Of a DNA stretch of 64,000 nucleotides, positions 4,970 to 60,777 are shown in pieces; position 1 is the first letter of the stretch, and each line of letters opens with the position of its first letter. The stretch is taken from NCBI GenBank assembly GCA_943350875.1, contig CALRAL010000001.1, positions 4,829-68,828 of the forward strand. The letters run 5' to 3'. Position numbers and translations under genes: made by a program. Below the pieces are notes generated by a model. The model was not told the origin of the DNA, ran no database searches, and saw nothing but the letters and a program-made list of their open reading frames with translations. This DNA is from Candidatus Nomurabacteria bacterium. Its GTDB lineage: Bacteria > Patescibacteriota > Minisyncoccia > Phycocordibacterales > UBA9973.

Positions 4970-5470
4970 ATGAAAAATTGGAAACTTTATTTTGAAAAAC
5001 ATTTAAACAGAAAACCAAAGGAACAGCTCATTAAAGCTCTTTCTTTTTGTGCTTCTAAAAATGTGGCGTTAGATTTAGGAGCAGGTACATTGATTGAATC
5101 AAGAGCCATATTAAATAATGGTTTTAAAAAAGTAATTGCGATAGATAATGCGCCAGATGTAGGGCTTTTTGTTAAGAATTTTAATGATGTTAGACTCAGT
5201 TTTAAAAATATATCTTTTAAGGAATATAATTTTCCAAAAAATAAATTTGATTTAATAAATGCCCAATATGCTTTACCTTTCAATGGGGAAAAAGGTTTTA
5301 ATACTTTGTTTAAAAAAATAAAAAACTCTCTAAAAAACAAAGGAGTTTTTGTAGGTCAATTTTTTGGAGTAAAAGATAGTTGGAATAAAAAAGGTTCAGA
5401 CTTAGTTTTTCATAAAAAATCTGAAGTTTTAAAGCTTCTGTCTGGTTTAGAGGTAATAGAATTTATATAA
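4970..5470 (+). CDS. Class I SAM-dependent methyltransferase
   Basis: Motif I-like VALDLGAGTLIE; 166 aa. Confidence 0.5.
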   Translation: MKNWKLYFEKHLNRKPKEQLIKALSFCASKNVALDLGAGTLIESRAILNNGFKKVIAIDNAPDVGLFVKNFNDVRLSFKNISFKEYNFPKNKFDLINAQYALPFNGEKGFNTLFKKIKNSLKNKGVFVGQFFGVKDSWNKKGSDLVFHKKSEVLKLLSGLEVIEFI

Positions 5471-5653
5471 GAAGAAAAAGATGCCTTGCCTGTTTCTGGA
5501 AAAATGAAACATTGGCATTTTTTTCATATTATTGCTAGAAAGTGCTGTTAAGTAATGATAATCTATATCTAACAAATTCAAGTGCTACGTAATTTTCTGT
5601 TAGTATGGTAAAATATACTTGTTTTTGGATTGATATAACTAATTTTAAATTCT

Positions 5654-6463
5654 ATGAACAAAGTTGATGATTATGATAAAATAATGGCGGATCACAGACT
5701 TTTCAACCAAGTGGTTTATACATCATTGACTGAGGCTATAAAAATTTTAAAAGAAAGGCAAAAAGATAAAGGTTTGAGGGAAAAAATTGAAAAACTTTTA
5801 GGAGGAGACATTCCAGAACCTTTAAGAAAAATTGATAAATATGGAATTAGTAGTAAACAAGTAGCTACCCCTAATTTTGATACTAGATGGTTTTTAAATT
5901 TAATGAAAGAGTTTAGTTTAAAACCAGTTTTTTTAGAATATTATAATGATAAATTTACTTCTAATAATAGTTTTAAACATTCCTTAGGACAATTAATTGT
6001 ATATGATAATTTAAATAAAAAAGGTGAACATAAAATAAAAAAAATTACTATTGTGGATTTTAATAAATACAATGGCAAACCTATTAAAGATGTTTTAACT
6101 CTTTGGTCAGAATCACTGATTGACTTTCATAAAAGATTATTTAAAGTTTGTGGTTATGAAAATGAAAATTTATGTTTTTATGATGAATCTAATTGGTTAA
6201 AGAAACATGGTGATAAAGCAAAAGACTATTATGAAAATGATTTGTTGTTATATGTGTATCATGGTATTCTTTTTGAAAATTTTTTATTAACAGGAGATGA
6301 TGGTAATTTTGTTAAAAATATATTTTTACCAGCTTTTGAAAAGGTGTATAATTTAACAGGTTTGAAACCATTAATAGTACCTATACCACCAATGGATATT
6401 GAAGAAGATACATGTTGGTTATCTTATGATAAAAGAATTGAACCTTATATTAAAATAAAATAA
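5654..6463 (+). CDS. Hypothetical protein
   Basis: 269-aa ORF; no motif recognised. Confidence 0.35.
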   Translation: MNKVDDYDKIMADHRLFNQVVYTSLTEAIKILKERQKDKGLREKIEKLLGGDIPEPLRKIDKYGISSKQVATPNFDTRWFLNLMKEFSLKPVFLEYYNDKFTSNNSFKHSLGQLIVYDNLNKKGEHKIKKITIVDFNKYNGKPIKDVLTLWSESLIDFHKRLFKVCGYENENLCFYDESNWLKKHGDKAKDYYENDLLLYVYHGILFENFLLTGDDGNFVKNIFLPAFEKVYNLTGLKPLIVPIPPMDIEEDTCWLSYDKRIEPYIKIK

Positions 6464-11419: not shown

Positions 11420-11818
11420 ATGACTCTTTTAAAAAACAAATCCAAGTTACTTCCAAGACGTAGAGAATTAAGAAAAAACCAGACTAAACAAGAAGAAATT
11501 TTATGGGAAAAGATAAGAAATCGGAAACTTGGAATTAAATTTAAAAGGCAGTATAGTATAGGTGGTTATGTTTTAGATTTTTATTCTCCAGAATGTAAAT
11601 TAGTTATAGAATTAGATGGTAACCAGCATTTAGCAAAAGAGAATGCTTTGTATGATAGATACAGGACAGAATATTTGGAAATTTTAGGTTGTGAAGTTTT
11701 AAGGATTAAAAATAGTGAATTAGATAAAAATTTGGAAAAAGTTTTATTACAAATTAAGAAGTTTACCCCTCTCCTTGATAAGGAGAGGGGAAGGGGTGAG
11801 GTGAATATGAATTTATGA
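11420..11818 (+). CDS. DUF559 / Vsr-like endonuclease domain protein
   Basis: LRKNQTKQEEILWEKIRNRKLGIKFKRQYSIGGYVLDFY...LVIELDGNQH...EILGCEVLRIKNSEL matches the DUF559 consensus. Confidence 0.65.
   Translation: MTLLKNKSKLLPRRRELRKNQTKQEEILWEKIRNRKLGIKFKRQYSIGGYVLDFYSPECKLVIELDGNQHLAKENALYDRYRTEYLEILGCEVLRIKNSELDKNLEKVLLQIKKFTPLLDKERGRGEVNMNL
11761..11806. repeat. GC-rich palindromic element, copy C
   Basis: Core identical to copy A, followed by GGGGTGAGGTGA; overlaps the 3' end of the DUF559 gene and abuts the PAP2 start. Confidence 0.7.
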
Positions 11819-12348
11819 ATGACACAGTCTTTTTCTTTTTTTATAATTTAGCCCATCAGTCTATTTTTCTAGATAAAATGATTGTTTTTCTGGCTGACAC
11901 TTTTCCGTATATAGTTGCTGTAGGTGCTGGCATTTTTTTGTTCTACAAACATTTTAAAATAAAAGAATTTATCTTTGTTTTTCTATCTTCTTTTTTTGCT
12001 TATGCCATAGCATCTATTTTGAAAATTTTAATTCATACTCCACGTCCATTTCTAGTATTTTCAGATGTACAAAGTTTATTTATTGAGAATAGTTTTGCTT
12101 TTCCTTCTGGACATGCGGCATTTTTCTCTTGCTTAGCCATGACTATATTTTTTATAAATAAAAAAGTGGGCTATTATTTTATGTTTTTTGCTTTCCTAAT
12201 AGGAATTACTCGTATTGCTTCTGGTGTGCATTTTCCAGTTGATATTTTAGGCGGTTTTGCCATAGGTATTGCTATTTCTTTTGTATTTAAGTATATCTTT
12301 GAAAAACCCTTATTTTTTGGCATTTTTACGGAAAATTTGACAAAATAA
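11815..12348 (+). CDS. PAP2-family phosphatase (undecaprenyl-diphosphatase-like)
   Basis: PAP2 motifs KILIHTPRPF, PSGHAAFF and SGVHFPVDILGG; multi-TM. Confidence 0.7.
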   Translation: MNDTVFFFFYNLAHQSIFLDKMIVFLADTFPYIVAVGAGIFLFYKHFKIKEFIFVFLSSFFAYAIASILKILIHTPRPFLVFSDVQSLFIENSFAFPSGHAAFFSCLAMTIFFINKKVGYYFMFFAFLIGITRIASGVHFPVDILGGFAIGIAISFVFKYIFEKPLFFGIFTENLTK

Positions 12349-12441
12349 TCAAACGGGTGTATAATGTACTTGAATATGGTTACCTCCCTATGTTCGCTTT
12401 TTTTATGGAGGAATTTGAAAACACAATAAACAGATACGAAA

Positions 12442-13212
12442 ATGACTCAAAAAACTGATAAAAATAGTAATGTTCGTACTTGGAATTCAGATATGAGAGA
12501 TGAAATAGTATCATCTTTTGTAAAAAATTTACCGAGTTTGAACGAAAATGTTTCTTTTGATTTGACGGATAAATATATAAAAAAACCGTTAACATTTAAA
12601 AGAAAAATACGGGAAATATTTTTCCCAAGTGAAAATGGATTGACAAAAAGAGTAGAGGGAATTTATCCCGAATCTCTGCTTGAATTTCATGAAGGATGGG
12701 TGGATTTTTATAAAAATTTTGGAGAAACTATTGATCTTGCAAATTTTCCTTTGCCCAAGAATTTAATTCTTGAAGAAGGGAAAGAGTATTGGTCAATCGT
12801 GGTGCCAGATAGTATGAATCCGCAAAAAGCTTTTGAGCTACGGAAGCAGATTACTATAGTTTATGAAAATACATCAGTTGCAAGAATAATTGATGTGTTT
12901 CCAAGAATGAAAGTTTCTGTAATTCGTGCAGAGCAAAATGCAAAAGTTTTACACCCACACATTTCGCTTAATCACAGCATGAAACTTGGATTATGTGGCA
13001 CAACATTTACTGAAGGTTGTATTATTGATGGGAGAATTTTCAAAGATAATGGCATGCATTTAGATGTTGATGGTTGGACGCTTCATTGTGGTTCTCGTAA
13101 CGAGCATGGCGATGCCGTGAGCTCGGACTGGTGCGCCGGCAGGTTTCTGGTGAGTTGGAGCAATCCGGATAATGCCGGTCCGAACTTGTCTATCCGTCAG
13201 AAGCAGTTTTAA
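12442..13212 (+). CDS. DGR target (variable) protein; C-terminal FGE/C-type-lectin-like variable region
   Basis: The C-terminal 38 codons form the VR (13089-13203), matching the TR except at TR adenines. The C-terminus HCGSRNEHGDAVSSDWCAGRFLVSWSNPDNAGPNLSIRQ resembles DGR variable-protein ends. Confidence 0.85.
   Translation: MTQKTDKNSNVRTWNSDMRDEIVSSFVKNLPSLNENVSFDLTDKYIKKPLTFKRKIREIFFPSENGLTKRVEGIYPESLLEFHEGWVDFYKNFGETIDLANFPLPKNLILEEGKEYWSIVVPDSMNPQKAFELRKQITIVYENTSVARIIDVFPRMKVSVIRAEQNAKVLHPHISLNHSMKLGLCGTTFTEGCIIDGRIFKDNGMHLDVDGWTLHCGSRNEHGDAVSSDWCAGRFLVSWSNPDNAGPNLSIRQKQF
13089..13203 (+). repeat. DGR variable repeat (VR), 115 nt
   Basis: Aligns base-for-base with 13480-13594. All ~16 mismatches fall where the TR has A (A to C/G/T). 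The 3' 24 nt are identical (IMH-like). Confidence 0.9.
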
Positions 13213-13237
13213 ACTTTTTGTTTTTAACTTTTATCCT

Positions 13238-13270
13238 AATCACGTTAGCTTTCCAAAGCTAACGTGATTT
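13238..13270 (+). terminator. Perfect 15-bp stem hairpin (loop CCA) followed by a T-rich tract, downstream of the VR
   Basis: AATCACGTTAGCTTT-CCA-AAAGCTAACGTGATT then TATTTTTGTG. Read as a terminator for the target gene; it may also be the DGR-associated hairpin. Confidence 0.6.
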
Positions 13271-13479
13271 ATTTTTGTGTTATAATAGATTTGGCTGATA
13301 AACTGATTTTAATTAAATTAAAATAACAGTTTGCCATATTTAGAAACTGCTTGCTTGAAATTTGAGCATAGATAATTCAGATAAATTAAGATGCTACACA
13401 TTGCTCTATAATGTAGAGAATAATACAGGTTGTTGAGTAATCGATAATCGGTGAATATAGATTTATTCCAAGCATAGTA

Positions 13480-13594
13480 TGGTTCTCGTAACGAGAATGG
13501 CAATGCCGTGAACTCGAACTGGAACGACGACAAGTTTCAAGTGAATTGGAACAATCCGAATAATGCCAATCCGAACTTGTCTATCCGTCAGAAG
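13480..13594 (+). repeat. DGR template repeat (TR), 115 nt
   Basis: Adenine-rich invariant copy of the VR (it would encode the Asn-rich peptide GSRNENGNAVNSNWNDDKFQVNWNNPNNANPNLSIRQ); lies between the target and avd/RT. Confidence 0.9.
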
Positions 13595-13610
13595 TTTCTC
13601 ATTTAATCCG

Positions 13611-13997
13611 CTACAAACTTAATTGTGGCGGATTTTGTGTTTGAGCGTATTTGAGCCAGCCGTTGGTCATTTTAGAAATTTCCTGTAATTTTAGCTCTAT
13701 ATTCAGATACACTTTTTCGGTGATTATTTTTAATTCAAATTCTATTCTAAATAACTGTTTTAATGTTTCTATTTGAATTCTTGCTTTTTTCAGTGAAATC
13801 ACTTTTTCATATTTTGCTTCCAGTGAAGCGCTAATCAAAAGTGAGAAACTTTTTAAAAATTCTTTTTCAATATAGCTATGGATTCCCAATTTATCTCGTT
13901 TTGGCAATTTGTTGCCAATTAAATACACATAGGCGTATAATTTCCCCATCTTATGCACAACAGGGATGTCAAAATTGCGTTGGGGGGGGGGTTCCAT
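13611..13997 (-). CDS. avd: Accessory variability determinant (Avd) / four-helix-bundle protein
   Basis: 128 aa; NFDIPVVHKMGKLYAYVYLIGNKLPKRDKLGIHSYIEKEFLKSFSLLISASLEA parallels the Avd/TIGR02436 consensus (F.DL.VWQKA..L...IY.LTK.FPK.E.FGL.SQ.RRAA.SI.SNIAEG). The N-terminal codons include the C10 run. Confidence 0.7.
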   Translation of the reverse strand: MEPPPQRNFDIPVVHKMGKLYAYVYLIGNKLPKRDKLGIHSYIEKEFLKSFSLLISASLEAKYEKVISLKKARIQIETLKQLFRIEFELKIITEKVYLNIELKLQEISKMTNGWLKYAQTQNPPQLSL

Positions 13998-15030
13998 TCA
14001 AAGTCTTTTTCATAATATAGTTAGTCTATCAAATTTACTGAAAGCTTGGAAGGAATTTAAAAAATGCAAAAATTCTAAAACGGATATTGCCGAATTTGAG
14101 TTTAATTTGGAAAATAATTTATTTTCTTTGTATCAGGATTTAATAAACAAAACTTACAAACCAGATCCATACCAAGCATTTTATGTGTATGATCCAAAAA
14201 AGCGACATATTCATAAAGCTGTAGTTCGGGATAGAGTTTTACATCAAGCTATCTTCAGAATTTTATATCATATTTTTGATAAGCATTTTATTTTTGATTC
14301 ATATTCTTCAAGATTAAACAAGGGAACACATAAAGCTTCGAAAAGACTTTTTAGAGCTTTAAGAAAAGAGAGCAAAAACTGGCACACGCCAGTTTTTGCT
14401 CTTAAATGCGATATTAGAAAATTCTTTGATTCTATAAATCATGATATTTTATTTTCTCTAATCAAAAAGAAAATTACAGATTCAGAAACTCTCATACTTT
14501 TAGATCAGATTTTAAAAAGTTTTGGAAAAAGTCCAAATACTGGACTGCCATTGGGCAATGTGACGAGTCAGCTTTTTGCTAATATTTATCTCAATGAGTT
14601 TGACCAATTTATGAAACACAAATTAAAAGTTAGATATTATTTTAGATATGCGGATGACTTTGTGATAATAGATAGAAATAAAGAATCTTTAGAAAATTAT
14701 CTTTCAAATATTAAATTATTTTTAGCAGAAAATCTAAAATTAGAATTGCACCCCGGTAAAGTATTTATACGAAAATTAAGACAGGGAATTGATTTTGTGG
14801 GTTATGTGATTTTACCAAATGTTGCAGTTTTAAGAACTAAAACAAAAAACAGGATTTTTAAAAAGCTAAAAAATGCTAAAAGCAAATTATTAGAAGGAAA
14901 AATAAGCCAAGAAAATTTTGAACAAATTAAAGCATCTTATATGGGTGTTTTGAAGCATTGTAAAAATAAAGAGATTAAGAGGAAAATAAAATTTGCATAT
15001 TTACTAGAAAACATATACCCGTACACTTAA
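13966..15030 (+). CDS. DGR reverse transcriptase
   Basis: RT motifs: CDIRKFFDSINHDIL, GLPLGNVTSQLFANIYLNEFD (the DGR-typical SQ/FANIYL block), YFRYADDFVII (YxDD), LHPGKV. It directly follows the TR. The G10 tract lies in codons 6-9. Confidence 0.85.
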   Translation: MSKLRWGGGSIQSLFHNIVSLSNLLKAWKEFKKCKNSKTDIAEFEFNLENNLFSLYQDLINKTYKPDPYQAFYVYDPKKRHIHKAVVRDRVLHQAIFRILYHIFDKHFIFDSYSSRLNKGTHKASKRLFRALRKESKNWHTPVFALKCDIRKFFDSINHDILFSLIKKKITDSETLILLDQILKSFGKSPNTGLPLGNVTSQLFANIYLNEFDQFMKHKLKVRYYFRYADDFVIIDRNKESLENYLSNIKLFLAENLKLELHPGKVFIRKLRQGIDFVGYVILPNVAVLRTKTKNRIFKKLKNAKSKLLEGKISQENFEQIKASYMGVLKHCKNKEIKRKIKFAYLLENIYPYT

Positions 15031-20617: not shown

Positions 20618-21238
20618 ATGTATACATCATCAAGCCCTAGCGATATTTTTGGAAAATCTTTTTTGGATTCTAAATTTTTCAATGCTGATTATTTATTTAA
20701 AAGTGGCACTCACATATTAAGTCAAATTAATTATTTAGAAATCTGGAGTATTATAAAAGTATTTTTATTGATTATTTCCATTTTTTTCTTAATCTTGATT
20801 GCTTATGTAGTAGTGCGAATGCTTGAACTTCGTAAAAAAGAACACGAACATTTGCATCATGAGATAGAGGAATACGCGCATCACCACGCAGAAAAAGAAA
20901 CTTCAGTTATAGGAGCAGATTTTAAGAATGAAAAATGGAAAAAGGTTTTAGAATATACCTTGTCTCCAAATGAAAATGATTGGAAACTGGCAGTGATAGA
21001 AGCTAATTCCATGCTTGAAGTTTTGGTAGGGGATCTTGGTTTTAAAGGGGAAAGTTTAGGGGAGAAACTCAAAAATGCTGACAGAGATAGTTTTCATAGT
21101 TTGAGTTCAGCTTGGGAAGTTCATACTATTAGGAATAGGATTGCTCACGAAGGTTCTGCATTTATACTTACTCAACGTGAAGCAAAGAGGGTAGTAGCCC
21201 TCTATGAGCAGATTTTTAAAGAGTTTGGGTTTATTTAG
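20618..21238 (+). CDS. Membrane-anchored hypothetical protein with a C-terminal Rx4H (HEPN-like) motif
   Basis: TM IIKVFLLIISIFFLILIAYVVV; C-terminal TIRNRIAHEGSAF. The domain call is weak. Confidence 0.4.
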   Translation: MYTSSSPSDIFGKSFLDSKFFNADYLFKSGTHILSQINYLEIWSIIKVFLLIISIFFLILIAYVVVRMLELRKKEHEHLHHEIEEYAHHHAEKETSVIGADFKNEKWKKVLEYTLSPNENDWKLAVIEANSMLEVLVGDLGFKGESLGEKLKNADRDSFHSLSSAWEVHTIRNRIAHEGSAFILTQREAKRVVALYEQIFKEFGFI

Positions 21239-21244
21239 AATTGT

Positions 21245-21547
21245 TGCGGGGAACCGAATCGAACGGTTGTCTTAAGGTTATGCTTTACCACTATAGTTTT
21301 CACTACAAAAATTTTGTGGTCTGGACTATACCATCTCCTTTTCTAAAAAATAAATTAAAGATTAAGGAGCTCGCCATCTAGTCTCTACACTTTTATCTTT
21401 AGTTAAACACCAAAGAATTTAGCTCGGAATTGTCTTTCTACAAAATATGCAGATAGGATTTCTCCGAATTTGACGAGTACACACCCCTATGTTTCCAAAG
21501 AGGGGGCCCATATTTTCTAACGCTGAGCCTTATGAGATACCACTTCT
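21245..21547 (-). tRNA. Initiator-type tRNA-Met(CAT) interrupted in the anticodon loop by a ~233-nt putative group I intron
   Basis: Minus-strand 5' exon 21547-21516: CGCGGGG-TA-GAGA-AGTGGTA-TCTC-A-TAAGG-CT. Minus-strand 3' exon 21282-21245: CATAA-CCTTA-AGAC-AACCG-TTCGATT-CGGTT-CCCCGCA-A. Joined, these give a cloverleaf with C1·A72, anticodon CAU and loop CUCAUAA. The exon ends in U and the intron ends in G (21283). The intron carries GTAGAGACTAGATGG (R-like) and GAGATGGTATAGTCCAGAC (S-like). Confidence 0.6.
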
Positions 21548-21614: not shown

Positions 21615-22349
21615 ATGGTTTGCATTAATAATAGAACTTATGATATACTGTTATATATGTCTAAATATAATGAACGAATAAGAGCTTTATCAATGAGAAG
21701 AGAAGGAGTTTCTATTCTTGTCATTGCGAGAGAACTTGGAGTCTCAAAAGGTACAGCTAGTAAATGGTGTCGAAATATAGTTTTGACTAAAGAACAATTT
21801 GAAAATTTAAAAAGAAATCAAGGAATATCAGTAAAAACAGGTCAAAGAATTGGAGCGGAAATGAACAAAAGGAAAAGGATTGATGCTATTAAGTCGGCTG
21901 ATATTTGGGGAAGTGAACTTATTAAAAAAATTTCTAAAAGAGAGTTATTATTGATCGCTACAGCGTTGTATTGGAGTGAAGGATCAAAAAGTGATCGTAC
22001 TTCGGGTTTTATATTTGTTAATTCGGACCCAGAGATGATTTTGGTAATGAAATTGTTTTTAGTAAATGTTCTAGATATACCGTCTGAAGAAATAGTATGT
22101 TCTATTCAGATTAATAGGATTCATGAAAAAAGGATAAACACTGTCTTGAATTTTTGGAAAAAACTGCTAAACTTACCAGATAATCAGTTTAGAAAACCTT
22201 ATTATGTAAATACCAAAATAAGTAAGGTGTATGATAATTATGATAATTATTACGGTATATGTAGATTGGTTGTAAGGAAAGGTATGAATTGGAAATACAG
22301 AATGATTGGTTTAATCAAGGCAGTAAAGAATAATATATTGTCGGCATAG
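21615..22349 (+). CDS. HTH-domain protein (resolvase-type HTH plus uncharacterised C-terminal domain)
   Basis: ILVIARELGVSKGTASKW HTH; its stop overlaps the first nucleotides of tRNA-Met. Confidence 0.4.
   Translation: MVCINNRTYDILLYMSKYNERIRALSMRREGVSILVIARELGVSKGTASKWCRNIVLTKEQFENLKRNQGISVKTGQRIGAEMNKRKRIDAIKSADIWGSELIKKISKRELLLIATALYWSEGSKSDRTSGFIFVNSDPEMILVMKLFLVNVLDIPSEEIVCSIQINRIHEKRINTVLNFWKKLLNLPDNQFRKPYYVNTKISKVYDNYDNYYGICRLVVRKGMNWKYRMIGLIKAVKNNILSA

Positions 22350-59156: not shown

Positions 59157-60777
<1,621 letters not shown>

Follow-up and report, generated by a model that had tools for sequence, protein, structure and literature searches.

An apparently intact diversity-generating retroelement in a Nomurabacteria-like chromosome: its repeat pair, predicted target fold, template RNA and a G-run in its reverse transcriptase gene

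Two 115-nt segments that are nearly the same in sequence, one closing a protein-coding gene and the other lying in the non-coding DNA beyond it, raise the question of what links them and of what has made them differ. They occur in a 64,000-nt stretch of DNA from Candidatus Nomurabacteria (contig CALRAL010000001.1, assembly GCA_943350875.1), which is referred to here, at its full length, as the window. An initial annotation, made from the letters alone, had taken the pair and its neighboring genes for a complete diversity-generating retroelement (DGR). The present analysis gives the same answer, in that an adenine-specific repeat pair, a DGR-type reverse transcriptase and the accessory protein Avd were all verified, and the cassette is very probably an intact, chromosomal DGR of the type restricted to the Candidate Phyla Radiation (CPR). 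Its parts are the following.

12442 to 13212, forward strand: variable (target) gene, 256 aa, with a helical N-terminal part and a C-terminal domain predicted to have the FGE/C-type-lectin fold
13089 to 13203, forward strand: variable repeat (VR), the last 115 nt of the target coding sequence before its final two codons; it may start at 13087
13179 to 13203, forward strand: invariant 3' end of the VR, resembling an initiation of mutagenic homing (IMH) sequence; equal to the 3' end of the template repeat, with its six A positions all unmutated
13480 to 13594, forward strand: template repeat (TR), non-coding, with 37 A and with 13 Asn codons in the VR frame
13611 to 13997, reverse strand: avd accessory gene; the open reading frame (ORF) runs to 13997, and the start conserved in relatives is the ATG at 13949 (112 aa)
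13966 to 15030, forward strand: DGR reverse transcriptase (RT), 354 aa, with LGNVTSQ (motif [LIV]GxxxSQ) and YADD

The element type is already known, and is catalogued among the CPR DGRs as architecture B3, with targets that have no recognizable domains. CPR genomes are known for their enrichment in DGRs, and as a DGR the window element is an ordinary, well-preserved example. What the analysis adds is a fold assignment for the target and its large, CPR-only and apparently soluble family, for which Pfam has no model; a structured RNA domain 5' of the template, along with a helix that brackets the TR; and a G-run of polymorphic length at the start of the RT gene. The structured RNA and the G-run are properties of the lineage, beyond the window alone, and neither was found described in the literature searched, the scope of which did not take in Paul et al. 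2017, the main paper on CPR DGRs.

The repeat pair and the cassette

A repeat search of the window returns a single 115-nt direct repeat, 13089-13203 and 13480-13594, with 86% identity and an offset of 391 nt; the initial annotation had placed both copies correctly and had put the offset at 390 bp. Base-by-base tabulation gives 16 mismatches between VR and TR, and the TR base is A at every one of them (the VR base being G in 12 cases, T in two and C in two). The TR positions other than A are the same in the VR without exception (78/78). Given 37 A in a TR of 115 bases, chance alone would put every one of the 16 mismatches on A with a hypergeometric probability of 8.6e-10. All but one of the mismatches (15/16) lie at codon position 1 or 2 of the ORF 12442-13212, and together they alter 14 codons, each of them non-synonymously (14/14). 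The mutated span, 13105-13178 in the VR, corresponds to template positions 17-90, where 16 of 28 A differ, and a candidate 17th substitution lies two bases 5' of the repeat, at 13088 (G in the VR) against 13479 (A in the TR). Read in the VR frame, the TR specifies Asn in 13 of 38 codons (6 AAC and 7 AAT). A scan on the 78 non-A positions detected neither a third copy of the repeat nor a remote second VR on either strand of the window.

The last 25 nt are shared by VR and TR, and the flanks diverge fully past 13203 and 13594. Six nt separate the end of the VR from the stop codon of the 256-aa ORF, and the TR is intergenic, 371 nt upstream of the RT start. As the IMH-like end of the VR and its TR counterpart (IMH*) are identical here, discrimination between the two would have to come from the flanks; identical IMH and IMH* have been reported for some DGRs (PMC5758913).

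The RT is a complete ORF with both LGNVTSQLFANIYLNEFD and RYADD, and also contains the SQLFAN block. In Pfam it matches RVT_1 (E 3e-22), a generic family and its only Pfam match, and a DGR-RT model is absent among its NCBIfam hits. Among proteins of known structure, its best relative is the Bordetella bRT of the 8ub7 series (E 1e-37 over 293 aligned residues), compared with about 1e-22 for group II intron and retron RTs, an advantage of some 15 orders of magnitude. Within this alignment LGNVTSQLFANIY faces Brt IGSLTSQLFANVY and RYADD faces RYMDD, and the residues that contact template and dNTP are kept: counterparts of Brt F66, R74, I76, G182 and Q187 are present, with I181 replaced by Leu. 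The product of the avd gene scores 46.6 bits against the Pfam family PF22296 (bAvd), above the 40-bit gathering cutoff, and has no match among PDB sequences. The initial annotation thus fared well on the cassette, its statements about A-only mismatches, an Asn-rich TR, a DGR-type RT with the LGNVTSQLFANIYLNEFD block and YADD, and an Avd-like gene on the opposite strand all being borne out, the RT with Bordetella Brt as its closest solved relative and the Avd with its passing bAvd score.

The order of target, TR, avd on the reverse strand and RT, which is that of architecture B3, is set in a Nomurabacteria-like genome in the window. It is kept wherever the available flank suffices, in Nomurabacteria-like genomes, other Paceibacterota and Moranbacteria, and 12 related elements combine it with an A-biased VR/TR pair. 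The share of their mismatches that falls on A includes 19/19, 19/19, 18/19, 17/17, 15/15 and 12/12, and further counts are 21/23, 20/23, 20/21, 13/15 and 13/14. The chromosomal neighbors vary by lineage, being FtsW/FolD...SecDF in the window and, in other lineages, SmpB...FtsH, ribosomal proteins...YchF, or ...PolA. An origin of the pair by ordinary duplication or by chance, with no retrohoming involved, would account for the mere existence of a repeat, which is its sole support; it is at odds with the A-only mismatches at the probability given above, with the adjoining DGR-type RT and Avd, and with the recurrence of the arrangement in the 12 related elements, and it deserves practically no credence.

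With the CPR DGRs, described as clade 2 (PMC8144416) and as the CPR set with architecture B3 (PMC5758913), the element shares a chromosomal, non-viral setting in a Parcubacteria-type genome, a reverse-strand avd between TR and RT, and one adjacent target with a C-terminal VR. It further shares with them a target without transmembrane (TM) domain, signal peptide or Pfam domain, as well as the identity of IMH and IMH*. No difference from clade 2 or B3 was seen that would exclude membership, and assignment to clade 2 would fit on the basis of taxonomy and architecture. Bordetella phage BPP-1, with the order mtd-avd-TR-brt, shares with the window element the RT similarity described above, the pairing of the RT with an Avd, mutagenesis specific to adenines, a VR at the C-terminus of a protein with a lectin fold (here a predicted one) and an invariant IMH-like 3' segment. 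The two differ in that avd is on the opposite strand and the RT has a G-run in the window, and in that the target is apparently a small soluble cellular protein here and a phage tail fiber in BPP-1.

Whether the cassette still works can be judged in part from its relatives. The elements L013 and L019/L020 are the same over 600 nt upstream, 700 nt downstream and the whole TR, and differ at 13 positions inside the 120-nt VR, 12 of which are at TR adenines (12/13). These differences show that mutagenic retrohoming operates in the lineage. Two results weigh against reading the window cassette as a fully typical DGR in current operation. Against NCBIfam NF033474 (DivGenRetAVD) the Avd protein reaches 56.6 bits, below the 80-bit cutoff. 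The VR of the window element is known as one allele, the exact target being present on 5 public contigs, and no near-identical alternative occurs in the protein collection, where the next relative of the exact target protein is 67% identical; a single allele on 5 contigs gives no sign of ongoing turnover in the window strain.

The cassette might on this account be a fossil, that is, a once active DGR that is now silent with its VR frozen. Besides the single allele, decay in related loci is in keeping with such a fate, since the VR of L003 is gone and its target frameshifted, L023 carries an insertion sequence (IS) at the 5' end of the RT, and L002 and L004 have 2-3 non-A mismatches. A frozen element would be expected to gain non-A differences, however, and the window pair has all 16 mismatches at A with zero drift over 78 non-A positions, a pattern that speaks against a fossil. 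The RT ORF is moreover complete, in frame across its G-run and in possession of its catalytic motifs, and avd, promoters and RNA domain are all intact. We regard the fossil as quite improbable. An intact element without non-A drift argues for recent activity, short of proof, and it is plausible that the window element is active, with diversification itself seen only in the sister element.

Two of the decayed loci merit description in their own right. L003 (MFTL01000008.1, about 5001-6110, Nomurabacteria) still has avd, the RT, the TR at its 3' end and, at 110 bits, the RNA domain. Its target gene carries a frameshift or a truncation, and a VR/TR pair could not be detected; this locus is a DGR with its target lost. 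L022 and L023 are two assemblies of one Moranbacteria DGR with identical target, VR and TR. A DDE transposase (the IS) lies between the G-run and the body of the RT in L023 (5725-7242) and is missing in L022; in L023 the RT has been knocked out naturally, the element being otherwise intact.

The target protein

What the element diversifies is less readily recognized. The 256-aa target has no Pfam, NCBIfam or PDB sequence match; mS34 and PBP4, the best hits in these sequence and profile searches (E 0.01-0.1), were judged to be noise. Its 22 close homologs are likewise without a Pfam domain, and those with a named source are from Candidatus Nomurabacteria metagenome-assembled genomes. In their alignment the variability is concentrated in the VR, on a conserved scaffold of G217, S218, R219, G223, S228, W230, F235, V237, L249, S250, R252, Q253, K254 and F256. 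An exhaustive profile search extends the family to 444 representative proteins, mostly of about 240 aa, which have the C-terminal ~170 residues in common; the named members are "hypothetical proteins" of Paceibacterota and Moranbacteria. A credible Pfam match was found for none of 88 aligned members (the target and 87 relatives), and the family profile finds no match among PDB sequences.

Structure prediction was more informative. AlphaFold2 with a 23-sequence alignment gave a mean confidence (pLDDT) of 44 and that model was discarded; with the 88-sequence alignment the pLDDT rose to 92, with a pTM of 0.84. The structural relatives of the latter model, with the figures as tabulated, are PorK (7.4), SUMF2 (6.9), the DGR variable protein TvpA (6.7), EgtB/OvoA/SenA (~6.5), Mtd (5.6), TaqVP (4.2) and about thirty canonical C-type lectin domains (~4). 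The alignments cover ~115 residues at ~3.2 Å, and the target is only 8-16% identical to such proteins as TvpA (2y3c), Mtd (1yu0), TaqVP (5vf4), SUMF2 (1y4j), EgtB and PorK. A Foldseek search of the model against PDB and BFVD gave no significant match. The model supports the assignment of the C-terminal domain to a divergent lectin-type fold, on the C-terminal beta-strands of which the variable residues are predicted to sit. The target differs from the solved DGR variable proteins and FGE-family proteins in having no FGE-sulfatase or DUF1566 Pfam match and no significant Foldseek hit, and in its N-terminal ~110 residues, which are helical in the model and without a recognizable relative. The earlier label "FGE/CLec-like" therefore stands for the fold, as a predicted model, and fails at the level of sequence, at which neither the target nor its 87 relatives have a match.

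The initial annotation had also suggested, from what is known of CPR genomes, that the element diversifies a surface or host-interaction protein. This finds no support in a target that has neither a signal peptide nor a hydrophobic segment (Kyte-Doolittle maximum 0.87 over 19 residues) and that has a polar N-terminus. These properties predict a soluble, non-surface protein, and the target is probably cytoplasmic. Targets without TM domains are a feature of CPR clade-2 DGRs, for which true non-membrane status has been left open (Roux et al. 2021, PMC8144416), and several CPR VR classes have been left without a fold assignment (Wu et al. 2018, PMC5758913); the target may belong to one of the unknown VR classes UVR1-6 of the latter study (PMC5758913). 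Should the assignment to a soluble lectin-type fold be correct, what the DGR diversifies here is a binding protein inside the cell and not a surface adhesin.

The family extends beyond DGRs. Several members with the lectin-type fold have no RT or Avd in the 3-5 kb of flank that was fetched (L011, L017, L024, L026/L027 and L061), and the target family also exists as non-diversified or remotely diversified paralogs.

The RNA around the template

The DNA between the target gene and the RT carries a series of conserved signals, given here with the promoter-like sites of the two genes.

12337 to 12365, forward strand: promoter-like site of the target gene, TTGACA-17-TATAAT, a 12/12 match
13204 to 13237, forward strand: conserved T-rich 3' flank of the VR, comprising the last two codons, the stop codon and ~25 nt of non-coding DNA; kept across the lineage
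13238 to 13269, forward strand: perfect 15-bp hairpin (stems 13238-13252/13255-13269) followed by TATTTTTGTG; apparent intrinsic terminator of the target gene
13278 to 13286, forward strand: putative extended -10 element TGTTATAAT for the TR RNA; TGnTAWAAT is found at the same place in relatives
13296 to 13336, forward strand: leader of the TR RNA, in which a hairpin (AAACUGAUUUUA...UAAAAUAACAGUUU) covaries and ACAGUUUGCCA is conserved
13342 to 13351, forward strand: 5' strand of a long-range helix, AGAAACU.CU, with its partner at 13590-13599
13349 to 13479, forward strand: four-way-junction RNA domain directly 5' of the TR, with outer helix P0, hairpins P1-P3 and single-stranded GAAUAUAGAU
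13590 to 13599, forward strand: 3' strand of the long-range helix, AG.AGUUUCU, across the point at which TR/VR homology stops
13605 to 13644, forward strand: hairpin AAUCCGC...GCGGAUU (13605-13634) and UUGUGUUU; terminator-like 3' end of the TR RNA, overlapping the opposite-strand avd stop codon
13912 to 13941, forward strand: promoter-like site of the RT gene, TTGCCA-18-TATAAT, an 11/12 match, antisense within the 5' coding region of avd; kept in relatives

There is strong covariation evidence for a structured RNA domain 5' of the template. When nine lineages are folded separately by minimum free energy (MFE), each gives a four-way junction of ~130 nt, the same in all nine, that adjoins the TR on its 5' side; its outer helix of 10-12 bp differs in sequence in nearly every lineage, and GAAUAUAGAU is conserved and single-stranded. 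A covariance model (R1) gives the window domain 111.7 bits and detects exactly one copy per DGR locus, including L003 and the truncated L005, neither of which was in the seed; it finds no copy in the orphan-target loci searched (L011, L017, L024 and L026). In the model-fitted alignment, which itself favors structure, 90.1% of cells are standard pairs as against 36-50% when the partners are slid, both sides have changed in 22 of 35 pairs as against 5-9 in the slid controls, and none of 500 shuffles matches the observed pair statistics on any measure. In favor of a real signal, despite the fitted alignment, are the folds made lineage by lineage and the controls with slid partners.

The long-range helix emerged from an alignment that was not fitted to structure. 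RNAalifold on a MAFFT alignment pairs 13342-13348 (and 13350-51) with 13593-13599 (and 13590-91), with two compensatory pairs, the 3' strand being made up of the last TR bases and the first five bases after the TR. On direct inspection the helix is present in 10/10 lineages, with 7/7 pairs in 9/10, and compensatory changes are seen in L015 (AUAAACU/AGUUUAU) and L022 (UGAAACU/AGUUUCA). It is also recovered in the MFE fold of the full 350-nt RNA. No Rfam family matches the TR-flanking RNA at gathering or E<=1 thresholds; the sub-threshold matches ncr982 and snR36 were dismissed. Twenty loci of IMG/VR came up in a motif scan for the conserved RNA leader; the covariance model matches none of them, so these are chance matches.

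In BPP-1 the essential RNA lies on the other side of the template. A structured Sp RNA of ~140 nt is located 3' of the TR and envelops bRT, priming occurs from Sp A56, beside a short TR:Sp duplex, and just 20 nt upstream of the TR are needed, which are duplexed with Sp; the accompanying conservation survey took in Bacillota, Cyanobacteriota and Pseudomonadota, with flanks of 40 nt before the TR and 100 nt after it (Handa et al., bioRxiv 10.1101/2023.10.23.563531). The two systems share structured TR flanks and an upstream segment that pairs at or after the TR 3' end (13342-13348:13593-13599 here). They differ in where the bulk of the RNA is found, as the window has a ~130-nt domain 5' of the TR and ~50 nt of linker and terminator hairpin after it. 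A Bordetella-type structured RNA of at least 100 nt is absent 3' of the TR in the window, where a 10-nt linker and a terminator-like hairpin precede the antisense avd. With the large domain upstream and so little sequence downstream, the functions of RT-Avd binding and priming would be served from the 5' side, and by analogy with BPP-1 the long-range helix may fix the start of the cDNA at the TR 3' boundary. How DGR reverse transcription works is known almost wholly from one phage, with its structured RNA after the template, and a lineage with a strongly covarying domain before the template, and with an upstream strand that pairs at the 3' boundary of the template, offers a natural way to learn which features of the RNA are truly necessary; such a lineage may also be of use in the engineering of compact DGRs.

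The hairpin beyond the VR is a separate matter. The initial annotation had described it as a perfect 15-bp hairpin, which it is, 35 nt past the VR, where the spacing is in fact 34 nt. It lies 34-43 nt past the VR in 8/9 related elements examined and 72 nt past it in L006; a T-run follows directly in 7/9, and the stem sequence is not conserved. Its T-run, and its recurrence without conservation of the stem, make it look primarily like the intrinsic terminator of the target gene. It might instead be a target-recognition cruciform of the kind found in Bordetella phage BPP-1, to which its steady spacing in 8/9 elements would lend itself, as would the finding that inverted repeats downstream of the IMH enhance homing in Bordetella and Legionella (PMC5758913). 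The T-run in 7/9 and the changing stem tell against a cruciform, however, and the hairpin is AT-rich with a 2-5 nt loop where the Bordetella element is GC-rich; it also scores as an intrinsic terminator. The cruciform thus appears unlikely, although both roles could coexist. The terminator remains our reading of the hairpin, and the 34 nt that separate it from the VR are a candidate target-recognition sequence.

The G-run in the reverse transcriptase gene, and other features of the window

A single further feature is needed to describe the element.

13982 to 13991, forward strand: homopolymer of ten G (G10), in RT codons 6-9 counted from the ATG at 13966 or 3-6 from the conserved TTG at 13975; candidate slipped-strand switch

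The window has a GC content of 34.8% over its 64 kb and contains only two runs of at least seven G, at 1349-1358 and 13982-13991. A run of G8-12 is present at the same place of the RT in 12/12 elements, including those of Moranbacteria and of distant Paceibacterota, and the TTG just upstream of it occurs in most relatives. No locus has a canonical in-frame start downstream of the tract, and the RT helix that aligns with Brt from residue 6 onward begins 3-4 codons past it, which together place the tract inside the RT coding sequence. GGG makes up 16% of Gly codons, so that the coding of Gly-Gly-Gly fails to explain a pure G-run. The length of the tract is constant among independent assemblies of one element (for example six at 9, four at 10 and three at 11) and differs between elements, including by steps that are not multiples of three. 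L013 has 10 G and is in frame and L019/20/21 have 11 G and are out of frame, at 99-100% identity over avd-RT; this is the one near-identical pair in which a frame-changing polymorphism between close relatives is seen. Assembly error is an unlikely cause of the length differences, the length being the same in 2-6 independent assemblies per element.

Poly-G/C contingency tracts occur in genes and promoters of Neisseria, Haemophilus and Campylobacter. The RT tract shares with such loci its G8-12 directly after a start codon, in an AT-rich genome otherwise nearly without such runs, and a length that differs among close relatives, including a one-base frame shift; unlike them, several DGR elements stably keep an apparently out-of-frame length. 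It has the sequence hallmarks of a slipped-strand contingency locus, and the window tract is in frame. A link of DGRs with homopolymer phase variation, or with a tract that gates the RT, was not found in the literature searched, within the scope given above. The RT G-run, if it is switchable, would be relevant to the question of how a mutator's cost to the cell is kept low.

The avd start requires comment, since the tract of the window lies 33 nt upstream of the conserved start of this opposite-strand gene. Initiation at 13997, upstream of the G-tract, was rejected because the ATG there is present only in the window and absent in relatives, and avd probably starts at 13949 instead. The conserved His codons of Avd (in VHK) and RT (in FHN), at 13953-13955 and 14012-14010 in the window, each read ATG on the opposite strand. 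These two ATGs flank the G-tract and have equivalents in related loci. Certain tract lengths could in principle put both in frame with the opposite gene, which would give an N-terminally extended Avd or RT.

The G-run may, on the other hand, have nothing to do with phase switching and instead encode a Gly-rich N-terminus, act as a site of programmed frameshifting or transcriptional slippage, or form part of the avd spacer or untranslated region, and this alternative has a chance that falls just short of even. The L048 and L058 groups, with 3-4 assemblies each, keep their length without a canonical in-frame start, the conserved avd start is found 27-33 nt downstream of the tract on the avd strand, and the other G10 of the window sits in a promoter spacer. 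The switch is favored instead by the pure G-run in 12/12 elements when GGG is only 16% of Gly codons, by the one-G difference that frameshifts the RT at 99-100% identity, and by the lack of a good sigma-70-like avd promoter across the tract. For this last reason, that no acceptable minus-strand -35/-10 pair spans the tract, a position in the spacer of an avd promoter, like that of the G10 at 1349-1358, was rejected.

For the element as an intact DGR, the mechanism that we propose is as follows. To judge by the conserved signals, a non-coding RNA of ~350 nt (~13296-13645) would be transcribed from the extended -10 promoter that follows the target terminator, and would stop at the hairpin 10 nt past the TR. 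The RNA would fold with the leader hairpin, the ~130-nt junction and the helix 13342-13348:13593-13599, structures that are shown by covariation. As in Bordetella bRT-Avd, the RT-Avd complex would bind the structured flanks and make cDNA from the TR 3' boundary, with misincorporation opposite template A. The cDNA would then take the place of the VR at the target gene's 3' end, as the A-only mismatches here and the A-directed VR turnover in the sister element suggest. Its anchor would be the IMH-like end of 25 invariant nt, probably along with the conserved flank 3' of the VR. In this way up to ~28 A-templated positions could be diversified, of which 16 differ now, with 14 residues changed. Finally, as a hypothesis, the G10 run would probably make RT expression, and with it mutagenesis, switchable by slipped-strand changes of length, the window tract being in frame (ON). 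The RNA evidence and a switchable tract can further be combined into one reading, which we put forward as tentative and, taken as a whole, doubtful: the element would have a permuted template RNA, with a binding and priming domain on the 5' side and an upstream strand held at the TR 3' boundary to set the start of the cDNA, together with hypermutation gated by poly-G. Cells would then switch at random between a mutator-ON and a mutator-OFF state, the protein affected being a cytoplasmic one with a lectin fold.

Several points weigh against the proposed mechanism. The priming site on the RNA is placed by analogy only. By the criterion of a canonical start, 7/12 elements would be OFF, several of them with a perfect A-only VR/TR pair and each of these seen in 3-4 assemblies. 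For a conserved frame upstream, with the peptide xSK..GGG, the figure is 8/12 elements in frame, and only 2/12 are out of frame by both criteria. Non-canonical initiation, or frameshifting or slippage along the G-run, may fit this pattern of frames better than simple ON/OFF switching does.

The second G-run of the window, G10 at 1349-1358, lies in the 17-nt spacer of a TTGACT-N17-TATACT promoter-like site at 1339-1367, upstream of the ORF 1434-1925 (163 aa). This geometry is typical of a phase-variable promoter and suggests a more general use of poly-G switches in the genome.

The remaining observations concern other parts of the window. An ORF of 132 aa at 11420-11818, two genes upstream of the target, resembles the DUF559/MTES_1575 endonucleases and has no visible link with the cassette. 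A full-length group I catalytic intron (Rfam, 78 bits) is present at 21303-21535 on the reverse strand, between the forward-strand ORFs 20618-21238 and 21615-22349; it has no ORF of at least 60 aa on its own strand, and its host is possibly an unrecognized tRNA or other RNA gene. The 16S rRNA match at 59158-60777 measures 1620 nt against a model of 1533 positions. Insertions in 16S rRNA are common in CPR bacteria, and the gene may carry one of ~90 nt.

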